Shown here: one piece after another, positions 8,868 to 16,169 of the stretch
Position numbering within the stretch: position 1 is the stretch's first letter
How the letters are laid out: each line of letters starts with the position of its first letter
Assembly: GCA_048939765.1 (NCBI GenBank)
Contig: JBHLPF010000034.1
Span: forward strand, 24,905 to 41,073
Length of the DNA: 16,169 bases
Direction: 5' to 3'
Source of the DNA: Promethearchaeota archaeon
GTDB taxonomy: Archaea; Asgardarchaeota; Thorarchaeia; Thorarchaeales; Thorarchaeaceae
The notes under the pieces: generated by a model
The model's database searches: none
The model's input: the letters and a program-made list of their open reading frames with translations, nothing else
What the model was told of the DNA's origin: nothing
Program-made: the position numbers and the translations under genes

Positions 8868-9509
8868 TCAGTCCTCTATCTTGTATATCTCGTCAAGTTC
8901 TTCCATTGTGATGAAGAGCTTCCCAACACAGGTCTCTTCGATTTCTTCTTCATTAAACCATGACTCATCTTTCTCTGGATTTGTCCATGGAGTTACCAGT
9001 TCTGGAGCATGGAAATGGTACAAAATGAACAGTCCTACTGCAATCTGAATAGGAATGGGACCGTAATATGGTCCAAACACGATTGTGGGATTGAACAGGT
9101 ATTCTATCATATATACGAATAGTGCAAGGACAGGAATGAGTAATGCAGCACATGCCCATCTTAGGACACTGTCTTTGCTGGCCCTGCCCTGATAGTACTT
9201 CACGACTTTCAAAGCAAAGATGATGTTGCATATGCTGAGTGGAAACGTTGCCCAGAGGAGAGCAGGGTTGAAGAACACAAAGCTTTGAAGCCCCGCATTC
9301 CCGACACGGGAGTCAAACGCCCAGAGGAGGGAGTACATGAAGTCATGCTCCGGGTATACAGAAGGGTACCCAAGAACCCCAAGAATCAACCAACTAGGCA
9401 GAATAGCATATGGTGTCAATAGAGTCAAGACACCCATCACGGCAGCTATGACTCCTGGGCTCACGCCATATAAATCGTGGTAGATATCATCGGTAGTCAT
9501 AGCAGCCAA
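8868..9509 (-). CDS. Uncharacterised multi-pass membrane protein, paralogue A
   Basis: About 4 hydrophobic segments, YYQG, GPIPIQI, TPW, acidic tail. Closely similar to 10220..10870. Start is TTG 9509 or ATG 9500. Confidence 0.8.
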   Translation of the reverse strand: MAAMTTDDIYHDLYGVSPGVIAAVMGVLTLLTPYAILPSWLILGVLGYPSVYPEHDFMYSLLWAFDSRVGNAGLQSFVFFNPALLWATFPLSICNIIFALKVVKYYQGRASKDSVLRWACAALLIPVLALFVYMIEYLFNPTIVFGPYYGPIPIQIAVGLFILYHFHAPELVTPWTNPEKDESWFNEEEIEETCVGKLFITMEELDEIYKIED

Positions 9510-9650
9510 GCCGCCCTCAGAAAGAATCTATAGACGATATTTGTGATAAATGGCTCGTTGGAGTGAAAATCGTACCTACGGACAACAAAACCGGTGCATT
9601 GAGTATTGTACGTCACTGAAACAATGCAGCATGCTCATGTTGAGCTGAGT

Positions 9651-10219: not shown

Positions 10220-10870
10220 CTACTCCCAACTCTGGTACATCTCATCGAGCTCTTCAATTGTGATGAACAGCTTCCCCACATATGATTCTTCAAAATCCTC
10301 CTCAATCCACCATGACTCATCTCTCTCTGGGTCTGTCCACGGTGTGACGAGTTCTGGGGCTCGGATACGGTACACAATGAATAGTCCTACTGCAATTTGA
10401 ATTGGAATGGGACCGAAATATGGGTGAAAACCTGTTCCAAACACCATGGTGGGGTCGAACAGGAATCCAATTAGTGTCCAGACTGTCCCCTGGAAGAACA
10501 GAGCAAGGATAGGTACGATAAATGCAGCACATGCCCATCTTAGGACACTGTCTTTGCTAGTTCTGTCCTGATAGTACCTCACGACTTTCAGACCAAAGAT
10601 AACATTGCATATGCTGAGAGGAAGCGTGGCCCAGAGGAGAGCAGGATTGTAGAACACATAGTTATGAAGTCCGATTCCCCCGGCATGGGAGCTAAACGCC
10701 CAGAGGAAAGAGTATATGAAATCCATTTCTGGATTTACAAACGGGTACCCTAGAACCCACCAACTAGGCAGAATACCATATGGTGTCAATATGGTGAAGA
10801 GGCCCATTATCGCAGCTATGACGCCTGGGCTTACACCGTAGAGATCATTTTTGATATCATCGCTAGTCAT
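10220..10870 (-). CDS. Uncharacterised multi-pass membrane protein, paralogue B
   Basis: Aligns end-to-end with paralogue A from MTSDD (ATG 10870), including 38 identical nt at 9142-9179 / 10521-10558. The ORF-track extension to 10936 corresponds to the conserved upstream region. Confidence 0.8.
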   Translation of the reverse strand: MTSDDIKNDLYGVSPGVIAAIMGLFTILTPYGILPSWWVLGYPFVNPEMDFIYSFLWAFSSHAGGIGLHNYVFYNPALLWATLPLSICNVIFGLKVVRYYQDRTSKDSVLRWACAAFIVPILALFFQGTVWTLIGFLFDPTMVFGTGFHPYFGPIPIQIAVGLFIVYRIRAPELVTPWTDPERDESWWIEEDFEESYVGKLFITIEELDEMYQSWE

Positions 10871-10977
10871 CGTAGTCAGGCCGCCCTCAGTTTCAATCCA
10901 AAAGGAAGATTCGTGATAAATGCGCCTTCTGGACAATACACGTACTAGAAAGACGGCAAAGGTTCTGCATCGGGCGT

Positions 10978-11102: not shown

Positions 11103-11350
11103 CGTCAGTCTTGACGGCTGACTGAGCGCACCCCATAAACATAGTGGAGCGTGCGTGTGAGGTCCGGACTCCGTGGTTAGCATGGAGAAAGGCCCATCGG
11201 GACCAGACCATAGGAAGGAGTCATTCCCGATGGAGGACCGTCGAAGCATATGATTCATTGATGTGCTGTGCACTGAGGATCGATGTGCAGAGATTGCAGA
11301 GGATGAAGGCATACGTACACGATTAGGGTTACATATGTAATCAACCGATG

Positions 11351-11383
11351 GTTACAACTCCTTGACAACAGGTAATACTGTGC
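11351..11383 (+). other. 5' strand of the pre-23S processing stem with bulge-helix-bulge motif
   Basis: CCTTGACAAC-AGGT-AAT(bulge)-ACTGTGC pairs with GCACAGT-ACCT-AGA(bulge)-GTTGTCAAGG at 14498-14521, giving a canonical 3-4-3 BHB. GTTACAACT pairs with AGTTGTAAC. Confidence 0.88.
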
Positions 11384-11398
11384 CGGTCACAAGAGTAA

Positions 11399-14300
11399 GA
11401 CTACAATATGCTGTACGGTTGCTGGTGGATGACTTGGTTGGCTAGCCGATGAAGGGCGTCACGAGCTGCGAAACGCCTGGGGTAGGCGCATGAAGCCTTT
11501 GATCCCAGGATCCCCGAATTGGACTTCCTGGCTGGGGCTAATACCCCCTGTCATTCCAGTGTCACAACTGGAAGGGGAACGCTCGGAACTGAAGCATCTT
11601 AGTACGGGCAGGAAAAGAAAACAATAGTGATCTCCTTAGTAACAGCGAGCGAAAGGGAGAAAGGCCAAACCGAATCCTCACGCGAAGAGTGTGAGGGGAT
11701 GTGGTGTGTGGGCTCTGAACTTATTGCCGACGTGTCCAAGCTGAAGTCGTCTGGAACGATGCGACATAGAGGGTGATATCCCCGTAGGCGTAAACCACGG
11801 GCATGTTTAGAGATCCTGAGTAGCGCGGGTTGGTTTTCTCGCGTGAAAGTCGCAGGTGCAATCTGCGAAGCCTAAATACTCAGCCAAACCGATAGTAAAC
11901 TATGTAGCGCGAGCGAAAGTTGAAAAGTGCCGCGGAAGCGGGGTGAAAAGCACCTGAAACCAGCAATCTATACAAAGGATGCCGATTAAAAGGGTAGATA
12001 CTCGAGGAACGAAACAGGAGCAATCCTGCAGTAGGACTCGAGTGGACCGCATCGGCGTCATCCGTCTTGAAACACGGGCCAGGGAGTTCATGGGCGTGGC
12101 GAGGATAAGGCATTAAGCCGTAAACGAAGCGAAAGCGACAAGCCCGCAGCTGCTTGCAGTGAGGGGCGACGTGTGATAAGTGCGTGAAGTCACTCCCGTG
12201 ACACGAGAAACCAGTCGATCTTGGCGTGGGCAGGGTGAAGCCGGGCGAAAGCTCGGTGGAGGCCCGAAAGGGTTCTGACGTGCAACTCGCTCCGTTGACC
12301 TGCGCGAAGGGGTAAAAGGCTTATCTAGACTGGTGATTGCTCGTTCTCCGCGAAGTTGGTCGCAGCCAAGCCCTGCTTGAGGTATCATGTGGTGTAGAGC
12401 ACTTTCGGATGTGCCCGGGGGTCGACAAGACCTTCACCATCCTGAAAACTCCGAAGCTGCATGAACTGTAGACGGCAGGAGACGGGTGCCCGGGGTAAGC
12501 CCGGCAGGCCGAGATGGGGAGAACCGAGAGAATGGTTAAGGTCCCTAAGTACCAGATAAGTGCGGTGAAGAAGGGCGTCGAGAGCCCAAGACAGTCTGGG
12601 GGTGAGCTTAGAAGCAGCTATCCCCGAACGAAAGCGTAACAGCTCACAGACCGAGGCTCTCGGCCTTGAAAATGGACGGGGCTAAATCTGGTTACCGAGA
12701 CCATTCAGCACATGGGTAATTCCGTGTGATCTGGTAGCGGAGCGATCCGGTCGGGTAGAAGTGGGGCTGTGAGGTCCCGTGGACCGTCCGGATTTGATGA
12801 TCCTGGCAGTAGTAACAGCAAAGCATGGTGAGAATCCATGTCACCGAAAGGGAAAGGGTTCTTCGGCAATGCGTCGTCAGCCGAAGCTTAGTCGATCCTA
12901 AGTGGCGTCGTAATTCGAGCGTCACGAAAGGGAATCAGGTTAATATTCCTGAACCTCGGAAGTACGATTCGCGGCAACGCAAAGCCGGACTTGTGACTCA
13001 TCTGGACAAGCCGAGCGCAGCTCTCGCTGCGCTTAACACTATAAGGGTGCCGAGTACCGTAATGGTGAGAAGCAGTCGAAAGGTGGAATAGCGAGTGGTC
13101 GGACACTCGTTCGGCTCATTCCTGGTGACCATGAAAAGCGAGTCCGGAAGGATCTTCCGAGTCCGTACCCAGAACTGACACAGGTTCCCTGGCTGAGAAG
13201 GCCAAGGTGTATCGGAGTCACCCCTCCTGAGGGAAATCGGCCAATTAGCAGCGTAACTTCGGGATATGCTGTGCCTGGGTTAGTGCAAGCTTTCCCAGGT
13301 CTTAGTAACTAAGGGGTCCCAACTGTTTAATACAAACATAGCTGACTGCGAGCGCGAAAGCGTTAGTACAGTCAGTGAATCCTGGTCTGTGCCTGTCAGT
13401 CAAAGCTCAGGAAGGGGTCTAAGCTCAGGTTAACGCCGGGACTAACTATGAGTCTCTTAAGGTAGCCAAATGCCTTGTCGGTTAAATGCCGACGTGCATG
13501 AAGGGAGCAATGAGGTCCCCACTGTCCCCAGGAGGGCTCCGGTGAACCTACACCGTACCGAACAGTGTACGTAGCGCCAATGGGAAGAGAAGTCCCTGCG
13601 GAGGTTTACTACGCAGTCTGTCATTGCCATCCCGGGCATCGTGCAGAGCATAGTCAGGAGCGTTGAACCATTCTCTCTGGGGAGTGGGAATGCAATCGTG
13701 TAATACTGACCATGTTGTCTGAGATGGCTAACCTAAACCAAGCGAGTCTAGGGACACTGGCAGATAGGCAGTTGGGCTGGGGCGGCACACGGCTGACAAG
13801 AGATCAGCCGTGACCAATACTGAGCTCAGAGGCGACGGAAACGTCTCGTTGAGATTAAGGGCAGAAGCTCGGTTGACAGGATCCCGCACAATGACGGATC
13901 CTGGGTGGAAACACTGGCCTAGCGAACCACTTCATAGCTAATTGCATGCGGAAGTGATGACAAAAAACTTACCCCAGGGGTAACAGAGTTGTCGCGTGCA
14001 AGAGTTCATATCGACCACGCGGCTTGCTTCCTCGATGTCGGCTCTTGGTATCCTGGCGTTGCATAATGCGCCAAGGGTGCGGGTGCTCACCGATTAAAAC
14101 CGAACGTGAGCTGGGTTTAGACCGTTGCGAGACAGGTTGGTTTCTATCTATTGGCGCTGTTGGATGTCTGATGGCAAGGGGAAGCCGGTACGAGAGGAAC
14201 GCTTCGCCGCGACCTATGGTGTACCAATTGTCTGAGAAGGCACTGTTGGGTAGCTAAGTCGTAACGAATAAACGCTGAATGCATCTAAGCGTGAAGTCAG

Positions 14301-14483
14301 ACCAGAAAATAGACATCCACTTGCTGAACGTCAACACCGAAGTTGGCACGGGACTGGTGACAGTAACGTGTAGTTCAGGAACGAGGGCTCTGGTAGAAGA
14401 CCAGGTAAATAGGGCAGGGATGTAAGTACCAAGGTTCGCCGAGGTATTCAGTCTACTGCTACTAATGCCCGAGGCGTGTAGTC
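11399..14483 (+). rRNA. rrl: 23S ribosomal RNA (archaeal), ends approximate
   Basis: GAACTGAAGCATCTTAGTA, CCGTCTTGAAACACGG, TTAGAAGCAGC, CTCTTAAGGTAGCCAAATGCC, P-loop GGGGCGGC, CTCGATGTCGG, GAGCTGGGTTTAGACCG, SRL GTACGAGAGGAAC. Terminal helix GACTACA (11399) / TGTAGTC (14477). Confidence 0.98.
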
Positions 14484-14497
14484 AGAAACGGTGGCTC

Positions 14498-14536
14498 GCA
14501 CAGTACCTAGAGTTGTCAAGGTTCAGAAGTTGTAAC
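14498..14536 (+). other. 3' strand of the pre-23S processing stem (BHB)
   Basis: Complementary to 11351-11383 as described. Confidence 0.88.
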
Positions 14537-14567
14537 GAATGTCTTCATCCTTTGTAGGTCAACCTCA
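14510..14567 (+). repeat. Direct repeat copy 1 (23S 3' trailer)
   Basis: 57 of 58 nt identical to 15902-15959. Looser similarity spans ~14491-14580 vs ~15884-15970. Confidence 0.95.
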
Positions 14568-14806
14568 ATCGTGTTTTCATTCTTAGATTGAATGGTGAAA
14601 TGAACTAATCGACTCGCAGTATGCGCTCCAATAGACCAACCGCTCTTGTCACAATTTTGGCGAGAAGTCTGGACCATAATCCTGCATCTCCTCATCACAG
14701 CCTTGAGAGGGTCATCGGAGTTCAAGTCATCATCGTAAAATCTTCTAGGAGGTCACCACGGCATGAGGTCTTCATGAAATCTTCAAACGGTAAAACCCAT
14801 GAACGA

Positions 14807-15544
14807 TCATCCTTCCCATCGAATCCCACACGTCTTGCAGGAATAGACAAAACGGGCTCTAGCCCCAAAGGCACCCAGATACATCTCCATACCAATCTCT
14901 TTGCTGCCGCATCCTGGACATTTCAGTCTGCTTTCTGGACGAGCCCGGTATTTCCTTTTCCGCAGTTCAATTGGTTGTTCGACTGGAGAATCAGATTCCT
15001 CTTGCCACCACTGGTCTGGCTCAGCCTGGTCATCAAATGGAGTCTTGGGGACTGGATATGGTGTCTTCCACATGAACACTAGTCCTGCAAAGAGCATCAA
15101 GGGAGTCGGGAAGGTCACGCCCGGGTCCCAGAGACTCATTGTGGGGGGCGAAGTGGCTCTCAGGATGAAATCTACTAGAAAGAAAGGCAGTTCAGCGAAG
15201 ATGCCTAGAAGAACCGTTCCAATTCGTGTGCTTCTCCCCTGATAATAACGGACCATCTGATAGACGAACACCAGTCGCCATACTGTGAAAGGAAAAGGAG
15301 CAATGATGTAAATGATGTAAAGGATGTTAGGATCCATTATCATCCAGTGAATGTAGCCTCCAATTTTATCAAGCCTCCATGTCATGGCCATTATTGTCAG
15401 CATGTCATAGTTCGGATTTATCCAGACGTAGTTGGGAGCTAGGAGAGCGAGCGTTCCAATGATAAGCCACACCACTCTGAGATCAACCGGACTGTCAGCA
15501 GATGCAGCCCGTGCGTTGTAATATGACTGCCTACTTGATGTCAT
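14807..15544 (-). CDS. Multi-pass membrane protein, distant paralogue C, with C-terminal zinc ribbon
   Basis: Shares VRYYQGR, FPTPL..F.GL, P.TPF.D..E..WW with paralogues A/B. Ends in CPGCGS...YSCKTCG.RW. Confidence 0.8.
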   Translation of the reverse strand: MTSSRQSYYNARAASADSPVDLRVVWLIIGTLALLAPNYVWINPNYDMLTIMAMTWRLDKIGGYIHWMIMDPNILYIIYIIAPFPFTVWRLVFVYQMVRYYQGRSTRIGTVLLGIFAELPFFLVDFILRATSPPTMSLWDPGVTFPTPLMLFAGLVFMWKTPYPVPKTPFDDQAEPDQWWQEESDSPVEQPIELRKRKYRARPESRLKCPGCGSKEIGMEMYLGAFGARARFVYSCKTCGIRWEG

Positions 15545-15747
15545 TGTCTCTCACCACAAGCAGCCCAATTGCCAGCAAGACAGGTAGCGGTCCTTATTCT
15601 AGTCCACATAGAAACAAGAGTGGTTGTCGGTAATGTAGTGCCAGGAATTAACAGATTTGAAGCAAGTGCAGTAATTCCAGCAATACTGGCTATGGTGGCC
15701 ACCGGGAATGTGGCCAGAACCTTTTGCCTGTACTCAGAACCTACCAC
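15541..15747 (-). CDS. Short hydrophobic ORF, possibly a truncated paralogue; translationally coupled to the next gene
   Basis: ATGA stop/start overlap at 15541-15544. PVATIASIAGITALASNLLIP loosely resembles the first TM of paralogues A/B. Confidence 0.3.
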   Translation of the reverse strand: MVGSEYRQKVLATFPVATIASIAGITALASNLLIPGTTLPTTTLVSMWTRIRTATCLAGNWAACGERQ

Positions 15748-15901
15748 TGTGTGCCACCTCGCTAAAACACCTATTCTCTAGTAACCAGAAATTATCTCTA
15801 ATCCTATTATGAGGTCAAACTGAGATAGGTCTTATTATGCATAAAGGCACACAGTCGAATCAATCAGTTTGCAGTCATGGATGATGGCTTGACAATACTT
15901 G

Positions 15902-15959
15902 GAGTTGTCAAGGTTCAGAAGTTGTAACGAATGTCTTCATCCTTTGTAAGTCAACCTCA
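15902..15959 (+). repeat. Direct repeat copy 2 of the 23S 3' trailer
   Basis: Offset 1392 nt from copy 1, with one mismatch (14557 G vs 15949 A). Confidence 0.95.
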
Positions 15960-16058
15960 TTGGTTTTCATGCCTTCATCTTGGAGAGAGAAGAAGAGGTA
16001 ATTAGCAAAACAACTGCCGCTATTGATTTCAGTTATTTCACTTGTAGGGCCAAGAGGG

Positions 16059-16169
16059 CTATTTATTTAATCTGGAAACATGTGATTTCCGCTTCATCAG
16101 ATAGACTCCATAGCCAGGAGGAAATCGTGAGAAGTCAGGACTCTTGGTTCCGGAAATTCGATCAATCTC
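16059..16169 (-). CDS. Possible 3' end of a gene entering from beyond the window
   Basis: Open frame from the edge: EIDRISGTKSPDFSRFPPGYGVYLMKRKSHVSRLNK*. No recognisable motif. Confidence 0.3.
   Translation of the reverse strand, partial: EIDRISGTKSPDFSRFPPGYGVYLMKRKSHVSRLNK

Follow-up and report, generated by a model that had tools for sequence, protein, structure and literature searches.

Copies of the 23S rRNA trailer separate variable accessory genes behind the 23S rRNA gene of a Thorarchaeales archaeon

Ribosomal RNA (rRNA) genes are regarded as the most stable landmarks of a genome. Behind the 23S rRNA gene of a Promethearchaeota archaeon (Thorarchaeales, Thorarchaeaceae; GenBank assembly GCA_048939765.1) we found an array of accessory genes that are separated from each other by co-oriented copies of the 23S gene's own 3' flank. 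The genome, which we call G000, is a metagenome-assembled genome (MAG) of 3.4 Mb that is 88.5% complete with 4.3% contamination. We analyzed a window of 16,169 nucleotides (nt) comprising positions 24,905 to 41,073 of contig JBHLPF010000034.1 (C41) and ending with this contig; C42, C53, C84 and C94 are further contigs of the same genome. The 23S gene lies on the plus strand at 11401-14484 of the window and matches the Rfam model LSU_rRNA_archaea over the whole model with 2505 bits. An Rfam scan detected no 16S gene and no transfer RNA (tRNA) gene within the window. The 16S gene is unlinked to 23S and sits on the minus strand of C94 (64272-65773).

Processing of archaeal rRNA at bulge-helix-bulge (BHB) motifs has been described before (PMC7038931, PMC10351888). 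Cofolding of the two flanks of 23S places the 5' (leader) strand of such a stem at 11294-11390 on the plus strand. This strand contains an outer helix (11360-11369), a central helix AGGT (11370-11373), a bulge AAT (11374-11376) and an inner helix (11377-11383), so that it includes the 5' half of the BHB. The 3' strand lies in the trailer directly behind the gene (14478-14580, plus strand), which we call copy 1. Copy 1 holds the last nucleotides of 23S, the 3' half of the BHB, the outer stem's 3' strand (14512-14556) and, at its end, a T-rich tract. Together, the leader and copy 1 form 58 intermolecular base pairs (bp) at -83.1 kcal/mol compared to -53.5 ± 3.9 kcal/mol for shuffled trailers (z = -7.7). 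The predicted BHB has a 3-4-3 form with the bulge AAT, a 4-bp helix AGGT/ACCT and a trailer bulge AGA at 14509-14511. The same stem architecture is predicted in five genomes of at least three genera, namely this one and four relatives from other genera. In the distal stem, leader 11297-11316 pairs with 14535-14554 of copy 1, and this partner is present in every copy of the repeat described below. Compensatory changes are found here across genera, with GGATGAAGGC/GYCTTCATCC in G000, GGATGGAGGC/GCCTCCATCC in G011 and G018, and GATGATGA/TCATCATC in G024. The genus consensus for the partner segment is ATGCCTTCATC, and a T in copies 1 and 2 of G000 produces a G·U pair there. The pairing of copy 1 with the leader is an ordinary case of an archaeal pre-rRNA stem, with a long helix and a 3-4-3 BHB that are conserved and co-vary across genera (PMC7038931, PMC10351888, PMC7714728). 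Unlike the stems in these three papers, where we found no such feature, the 3' strand is reiterated downstream in copies that separate genes. Copy 1, which adjoins 23S, is the working trailer and the downstream copies are displaced spares.

The first of these spares, copy 2, is located at 15873-15967 on the plus strand. Positions 14500-14575 and 15892-15967 form a direct repeat of 76 nt with 91% identity at an offset of 1392 nt, and when one gap is allowed the homology extends left to approximately 14478/15873, which corresponds to the last nucleotides of 23S. A search of the whole genome recovered copy 2 with E = 3e-25. The mismatches between the two copies are concentrated in the 23S end and the BHB (11 of 34 positions left of 14512) as opposed to the core at 14512-14569 (2 of 58; Fisher p = 2e-4), leaving the outer-stem core of copy 2 nearly identical to that of copy 1. 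When cofolded with the leader, copy 2 reaches -73 kcal/mol and loses the BHB. A model that saw only the sequence of the window had predicted this duplication around a membrane-protein gene, with a core matching at 57 of 58 nt, intact pairing of copy 1 to the leader and a decayed BHB in copy 2, and our measurements agree with it. The same original prediction took the locus to be a single trailer split by an inserted islet and proposed that the trailer had once continued at an 11-mer behind copy 2. This 11-mer (ATGCCTTCATC, 15969-15979, plus strand), which is followed by TTGGAG up to 15985, is an exact complement of leader 11302-11312 as predicted. The partner of the leader, however, lies inside every copy, where it co-varies, and the 11-mer is not used in the cofold. 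Based on this, we rejected the 11-mer as a continuation of the trailer. It aligns weakly to positions 59-78 of the unit core (shuffle p ~0.03) and is at best the stub of one more truncated copy, or possibly a chance match.

Rather than one split trailer, the locus contains four copies of the trailer and three cassettes, and it belongs to a design that is seen across the genus and the family. The genome-wide search revealed copy 3 at C84:736-809 with 85% identity. Copy 4, at approximately C84:2463-2558, has decayed, and we recognized it through its orthologue in the closest relative, G002. Both are co-oriented with the first two. The order is 23S, copy 1, the membrane-protein gene, copy 2, a methyltransferase gene, copy 3, a gene for a DUF6513/pterin-binding enzyme, copy 4 and an aminotransferase gene, followed by genes that are conserved in relatives. 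This order is spread over three contigs. C41 shares its final 77 nt exactly with the start of C84, and C84 in turn shares its final 77 nt exactly with the start of C42. The first join is backed by an intact open reading frame (ORF) for the methyltransferase of 212 amino acids (aa), and the second by synteny with G002. We regard this description of the array itself as near certain.

Cassette 1, the body of the islet, occupies 14581-15872 between copies 1 and 2. Its main cargo is a minus-strand gene (14807-15544) encoding a membrane protein 245 aa long. The protein has approximately four segments that are hydrophobic, and its C-terminus forms a CxxC...CxxC zinc ribbon; the sole Pfam match is a weak one to Zn_ribbon_PaaD. 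The protein family is multi-copy in the genus, with 11 matches in G000. On the same strand, a hydrophobic ORF of 68 aa (15541-15747) shares 4 nt with the beginning of the 245-aa gene. Cassette 2 reaches the end of the window with the 3' part of the methyltransferase gene (16059-16169, minus strand), which crosses into C84 and is predicted to encode an S-adenosylmethionine (SAM)-dependent enzyme (Pfam Methyltransf_25/31/11). The islet body has a twin elsewhere in the genome: 14627-15871 is 92% identical at the DNA level to C53:6692-7920, and both ORFs are conserved there. No trailer repeats flank this twin. Its alignment to the islet has a sharp right junction and leaves 25-45 nt unmatched at the left junction. 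The remaining cassettes of the array have no DNA-level paralogue in the genome. The idea of an islet thus holds in so far as cassette 1 is an inserted unit that is missing in the closest relatives. That the repeats are the ends of a self-contained mobile element does not hold, given the twin without repeats.

We aligned approximately 40 copies of the repeat to obtain the anatomy of the unit. It is approximately 100 nt long and combines a 23S portion, ranging from the last few to approximately 67 nt, with the whole stem's 3' strand, in which the BHB half is included, and a T-rich end that is probably the rRNA terminator. The left edge lies anywhere between -67 and +47 with respect to the end of 23S; some copies hold 30-67 nt of 23S, many begin at its last 7 nt and others begin up to 47 nt into the trailer. 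The right edge is mostly at the T-rich tract. A few copies end approximately 27 nt earlier and some are truncated. Wherever the end of 23S was assembled, it is abutted by a working copy. Spare copies have an outer-stem core (14512-14569) that is conserved as in working copies and a 23S-end/BHB part that decays. The minimal core common to nearly all copies is at approximately 14535-14552. Core variants are specific to a genome across all copies of its array, as in all five copies of G016, and this pattern indicates gene conversion or recombination among copies, in other words concerted evolution. A few spare copies carry a variant typical of the working trailer of another species, suggesting that they arrived with donor DNA. 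Identity to the working trailer falls with distance from 23S in G000 (100, 90 and 85%) and in two other genomes, but not in G005 and G016. Since these two disagree, we dropped this decay as evidence for insertion next to 23S.

The repeat is present in 15 of the 16 other genomes of the genus, which are MAGs that, like that of G000, fall in a range of 62-92% completeness. In most of them, 2-5 copies form an array on one contig at intervals of 0.4-1.8 kb. The copies all share the orientation of 23S, and the ORFs between them are on either strand. The cassettes, made up of one gene or a small group of genes, encode ordinary accessory functions. Predicted products include BPL_N-like proteins, a MarR-GNAT acetyltransferase, a nitroreductase, a solute-binding protein, DUF4760 proteins, an ABC-2 permease, a radical SAM enzyme, a uracil-DNA glycosylase, methyltransferases and uncharacterized membrane proteins. 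The genes for MarR-GNAT, BPL_N-like and pterin enzymes have different positions and neighbors in the arrays of different species. G002 is 98% identical to G000 at the 23S end and has the pterin-enzyme cassette alone in common with it, with unrelated cassettes on both sides; a gene for a 256-aa BPL_N-like protein takes the place of cassette 1. The relatives thus carry other cassettes at this site and do not uniformly possess both copies without an empty allele. With variable cassettes at the same repeats, the duplicated processing-stem strand behaves like an attachment or recombination site, as had been proposed. A second comparison involves G015. In G000 a 138-nt flank leads into copy 3, the pterin gene, copy 4 and the aminotransferase gene, and in G015 this flank leads into a single repeat and then the aminotransferase gene. 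Comparing the two assemblies, this is a precise gain or loss of one cassette together with one repeat, with G000 occupied and G015 empty. A search of metagenome contigs with the core pattern returned four contigs with further array variants. On one metagenome contig the conserved downstream genes begin approximately 560 nt after a repeat.

Other genera of the family also have arrays, each made of that genus's own 23S end and trailer. A conserved 23S-end query, the sensitivity of which drops with divergence, found multiple nearby copies in this family alone among 151 genomes of the phylum. The 16S gene of G000 shows the same phenomenon. Five extra co-oriented copies of its own trailer are located at approximately 62676, 61206, 59544, 56651 and 37392 within the region C94:37313-64301. 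These spares are 77-94% identical to the working 16S trailer and one of them takes in the 3' end of 16S. The 16S trailer repeat has no similarity to the 23S unit.

The most likely engine of these arrays is host homologous recombination acting on any DNA with a copy of the flank, a reading to which we give an even chance of being correct. Circular or circularized DNA with a copy of the 23S end and trailer would integrate through a single crossover, which would restore an intact trailer beside 23S and displace the second copy downstream. Crossovers between copies would excise or delete cassettes, and gene conversion would keep the cores of approximately 60 nt alike. Because the twin of the islet on C53 has no repeats, the first capture of a new gene between copies would need a separate step of non-homologous or replicative (template-switching) repair. 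Most tellingly, the 16S array repeat is unrelated to the 23S unit, and the process therefore uses identity to the resident gene end and not a common motif. A variable left edge and a usual right edge are expected if the integrating fragments have random ends and share homology only as far as the conserved flank extends. The model covers the co-orientation of the copies, genes on either strand, the edge pattern, the spares of donor type, the precise insertion or deletion and the missing integrase. Our confidence in it as a mechanism is about one half.

Several points weigh against recombination by the host alone. The repeat-less twin on C53, at 92% identity, means that trailer homology cannot explain the first arrival of the islet cargo. 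Neither a circular intermediate nor an empty-site read nor a very recent event came to light: an exact search for an empty site in metagenome contigs, made with the right flank of copy 2, gave no match, there was no episome among the metagenome contigs matching the core pattern, and spare copies are never more than 93% identical to the working copy. A function or a site-specific enzyme, rather than gene conversion, could lie behind the strong conservation of the core in spares. The genomes are all incomplete MAGs, in which a recombinase that acts in trans may have escaped detection. The junctions of the MarR-GNAT cassette bracket the exchange to approximately positions 47-68 of the unit, where there are few informative differences; this mapping is too coarse to separate a fixed site from scattered sites.

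Thorarchaeota might use the 3' flanks of stable-RNA genes, here those of 23S and 16S, as dedicated landing pads for gene capture that need no integrase. The spare core of approximately 60 nt would then be the working site of a candidate machinery or of a specialized form of host recombination. We put this forward as a tentative possibility.

It is unlikely that the arrays arose by serial site-specific integration of the kind known from tRNA genes, with an attachment (att) site that copies the 23S 3' end and trailer and with integrases that were lost or that act in trans from elsewhere in the genome, a virus or a plasmid. Tandem accretion of integrative elements is known at the 3' ends of tRNA and transfer-messenger RNA (tmRNA) genes, as are additive flexible genomic islands, described in Alteromonas (PMC4898812), and Asgard mobile elements are found at tRNA genes (PMC8813620). 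The layout here is similar to that of such tandem islands. Direct repeats derive from the 3' part of a stable-RNA gene, the intact end is proximal with displaced copies downstream, and the accessory genes differ between close relatives. The gene end is regenerated as in an integrative element, with units that start in the last 7-67 nt of 23S and a copy 1 that keeps the full stem and BHB. Displaced fragments with 30-67 nt of 23S also fit, and the minimal shared core could be a crossover site. By contrast to the islands, the target is the trailer of an rRNA processing stem, the repeat edges vary and the units are mostly single genes of 0.4-1.8 kb, far below the size of integrative elements. The original prediction had also stated that no integrase is present, and none was found. 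Tyrosine recombinases (PF00589) have no match in G000, at 88.5% completeness; they occur in 4 of the 17 genomes of the genus, never on a contig with an array. No recombinase domain was detected among approximately 55 ORFs scanned from approximately 20 array loci of three genera, and the trailer core had no match in a viral contig collection. In addition, the unrelated 16S repeat would require a second enzyme that is equally invisible.

Alternatively, the cassettes could be templated insertions made during break repair, after replication forks or transcription complexes fail at a fragile and heavily transcribed rRNA 3' end. Microhomology would let the broken end switch to a template elsewhere and copy from it, and re-engagement upstream of the break would copy the trailer twice. 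Host enzymes suffice for this, and the 16S gene is affected in the same way. It also agrees with the islet body, which copies another locus without repeats and has a sharp right junction and a left filler of approximately 25-45 nt, and with left edges that vary while the right edge is mostly near the T-rich end of the transcript. The absence of DNA-level paralogues for the other cassettes of G000 argues against it, and spares with the signature of another species point to imported DNA. The same cassettes and flanks recur across species, which would require transfer or long inheritance as well. We consider this process quite unlikely as the explanation; it may account for capture but not for shuffling.

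The spares might instead be kept for a role as RNA or DNA, such as pairing with the leader in read-through transcripts, transcription termination between the cassettes or binding of a biogenesis factor, with the array as a secondary outcome. This is compatible with the other explanations, and we judge it decidedly improbable. Copies 2 and 3 still pair with the leader over 56-58 bp in cofolds, the unit has a T-rich end, and it is the outer-stem core that is maintained while the 23S-end/BHB part decays. Many copies, however, are truncated on either side, and variants that are specific to a genome and common to all of its copies fit gene conversion. No terminator-like hairpin or stable self-structure was found in the unit. 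Scans of the unit for promoter and terminator consensus sequences gave nothing above shuffled controls, and since the patterns used were of bacterial type this carries little weight either way.

We examined a further class of mechanism in which an RNA-guided or programmable element (TnpB, a Cas1-like protein or an IS110 bridge recombinase) targets the rRNA end and repair builds the array. A guide could explain why the 16S and 23S arrays differ in sequence. TnpB genes occur in 12 of the 17 genomes of the genus, and a gene for an IS110-family transposase lies 1.4 kb behind the 23S trailer of G011 (L038:10865-12001 on contig C53 of that genome). However, G011 is the only one of the 17 genomes with IS110, which is an ordinary multi-copy insertion sequence there, and none of the 17 has Cas1. 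TnpB is never found on a contig with an array and has no match in five genomes that bear the repeat. The single TnpB locus of G000 has no word of at least 10 nt in common with the 23S end or trailer, and no seeds of at least 14 nt to the 23S end or trailer were found elsewhere in G000 beyond chance. A programmable element is thus highly improbable. We give almost no credence to an artefact of assembly or binning. The locus does span three contigs of a MAG, but its copies show differences of 9-15% and sit between unique flanks. Each join is an exact 77-mer, one backed by an intact ORF and the other by synteny, and independent MAGs and metagenome contigs repeat the design. The breaks between C41, C84 and C42 fall inside the methyltransferase cassette and in the conserved genes just downstream of the array. 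Breaks at repeats also occur in relatives (C141 and C13 of G015), which suggests that they reflect strain-level heterogeneity of the arrays.

We also compared the arrays with other systems in which genes or short sequences accumulate between repeats. CRISPR arrays have short (24-48 nt), uniform repeats, short spacers and the genes cas1 and cas2. The likeness to CRISPR is an analogy that consists of co-oriented repeats, new material between them, a fixed anchor and, in some arrays here, distal copies that are more decayed. The differences are greater: the unit is approximately 100 nt with variable edges, the intervals of 0.4-4.6 kb bear whole genes in place of spacers, and Cas1 is missing from the genus genomes. 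A closer parallel is provided by integrons and by clusters of attC sites that lack an integrase (CALINs), both of which have also been reported from Archaea (Ghaly et al. 2022, PMC9668308). Like these, the arrays consist mostly of one-gene cassettes between repeats of approximately 100 nt, vary in order and content between relatives and carry diverse accessory cargo. The arrays differ in that there is no IntI-type recombinase, which a CALIN may also lack, the repeat copies the neighboring rRNA flank and the cassette genes point both ways. Folding of three copies as single-stranded DNA on both strands gave no palindromic, attC-like hairpin (z = -0.02 to -1.27), and inspection of the unit by eye showed no R''/R' ends of the GTTRRRY type. 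We regard the locus as a new form of the accretion known from stable-RNA gene 3' ends, with a layout similar to that of an integron but neither its recombinase nor its attC sites. A full-text literature search found no description of cassette arrays built on rRNA trailers.

These results mean that, across a whole Asgard family, the tail of 23S has a second use as punctuation between accessory genes in arrays that change fast, without the integrases of integrons or tRNA islands. If host recombination alone is responsible, diverged lineages would have a simple route for gene exchange, with the genome's most conserved sequences as the homology anchor. An unrecognized enzyme, if one is involved, would amount to a new recombination system. 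There are also practical consequences. Contig breaks in or at the edge of arrays may make rRNA loci in these MAGs harder to assemble, and a spare rRNA end can pass for an additional or incomplete rRNA gene.

We made several further observations at these loci. The C53 twin of the islet body adjoins two ORFs of approximately 1000 aa. Differences between the islet proteins and those of the twin cluster at residues 56-80 and include a 6-aa deletion. At the start of the same contig (C53:4-71) there are two 18-nt tRNA-like 5' ends (ATGGGYCGGTGGTCTAGC) located 50 nt apart, with no tRNA call by Rfam.

Upstream of 23S, the window contains a tandem duplication of approximately 690 nt (8879-9552 and 10231-10922) with approximately 80% identity. 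It encompasses paralogous membrane-protein genes on the minus strand (8868-9509 and 10220-10936), the products of which are distantly related (approximately 28%) to the islet cargo protein. A metagenome relative, L073, is approximately 760 nt shorter across this interval.

In a single-contig relative (L026, G004:C1:1721300-1741200) only a 289-nt piece of 23S is readable by the trailer in a stretch that holds 300 N. The lone copy there is not readable as a clean empty site, and a second, decayed copy lies 3.5 kb downstream. The 23S gene of G018, from another genus, contains a group I intron (L047:12054-12384 on contig C46; Rfam Intron_gpI, 114 bits). The 23S gene of G011 (L038) has an unaligned insertion of approximately 216 nt between the positions that match 14131 and 14132 of the window.

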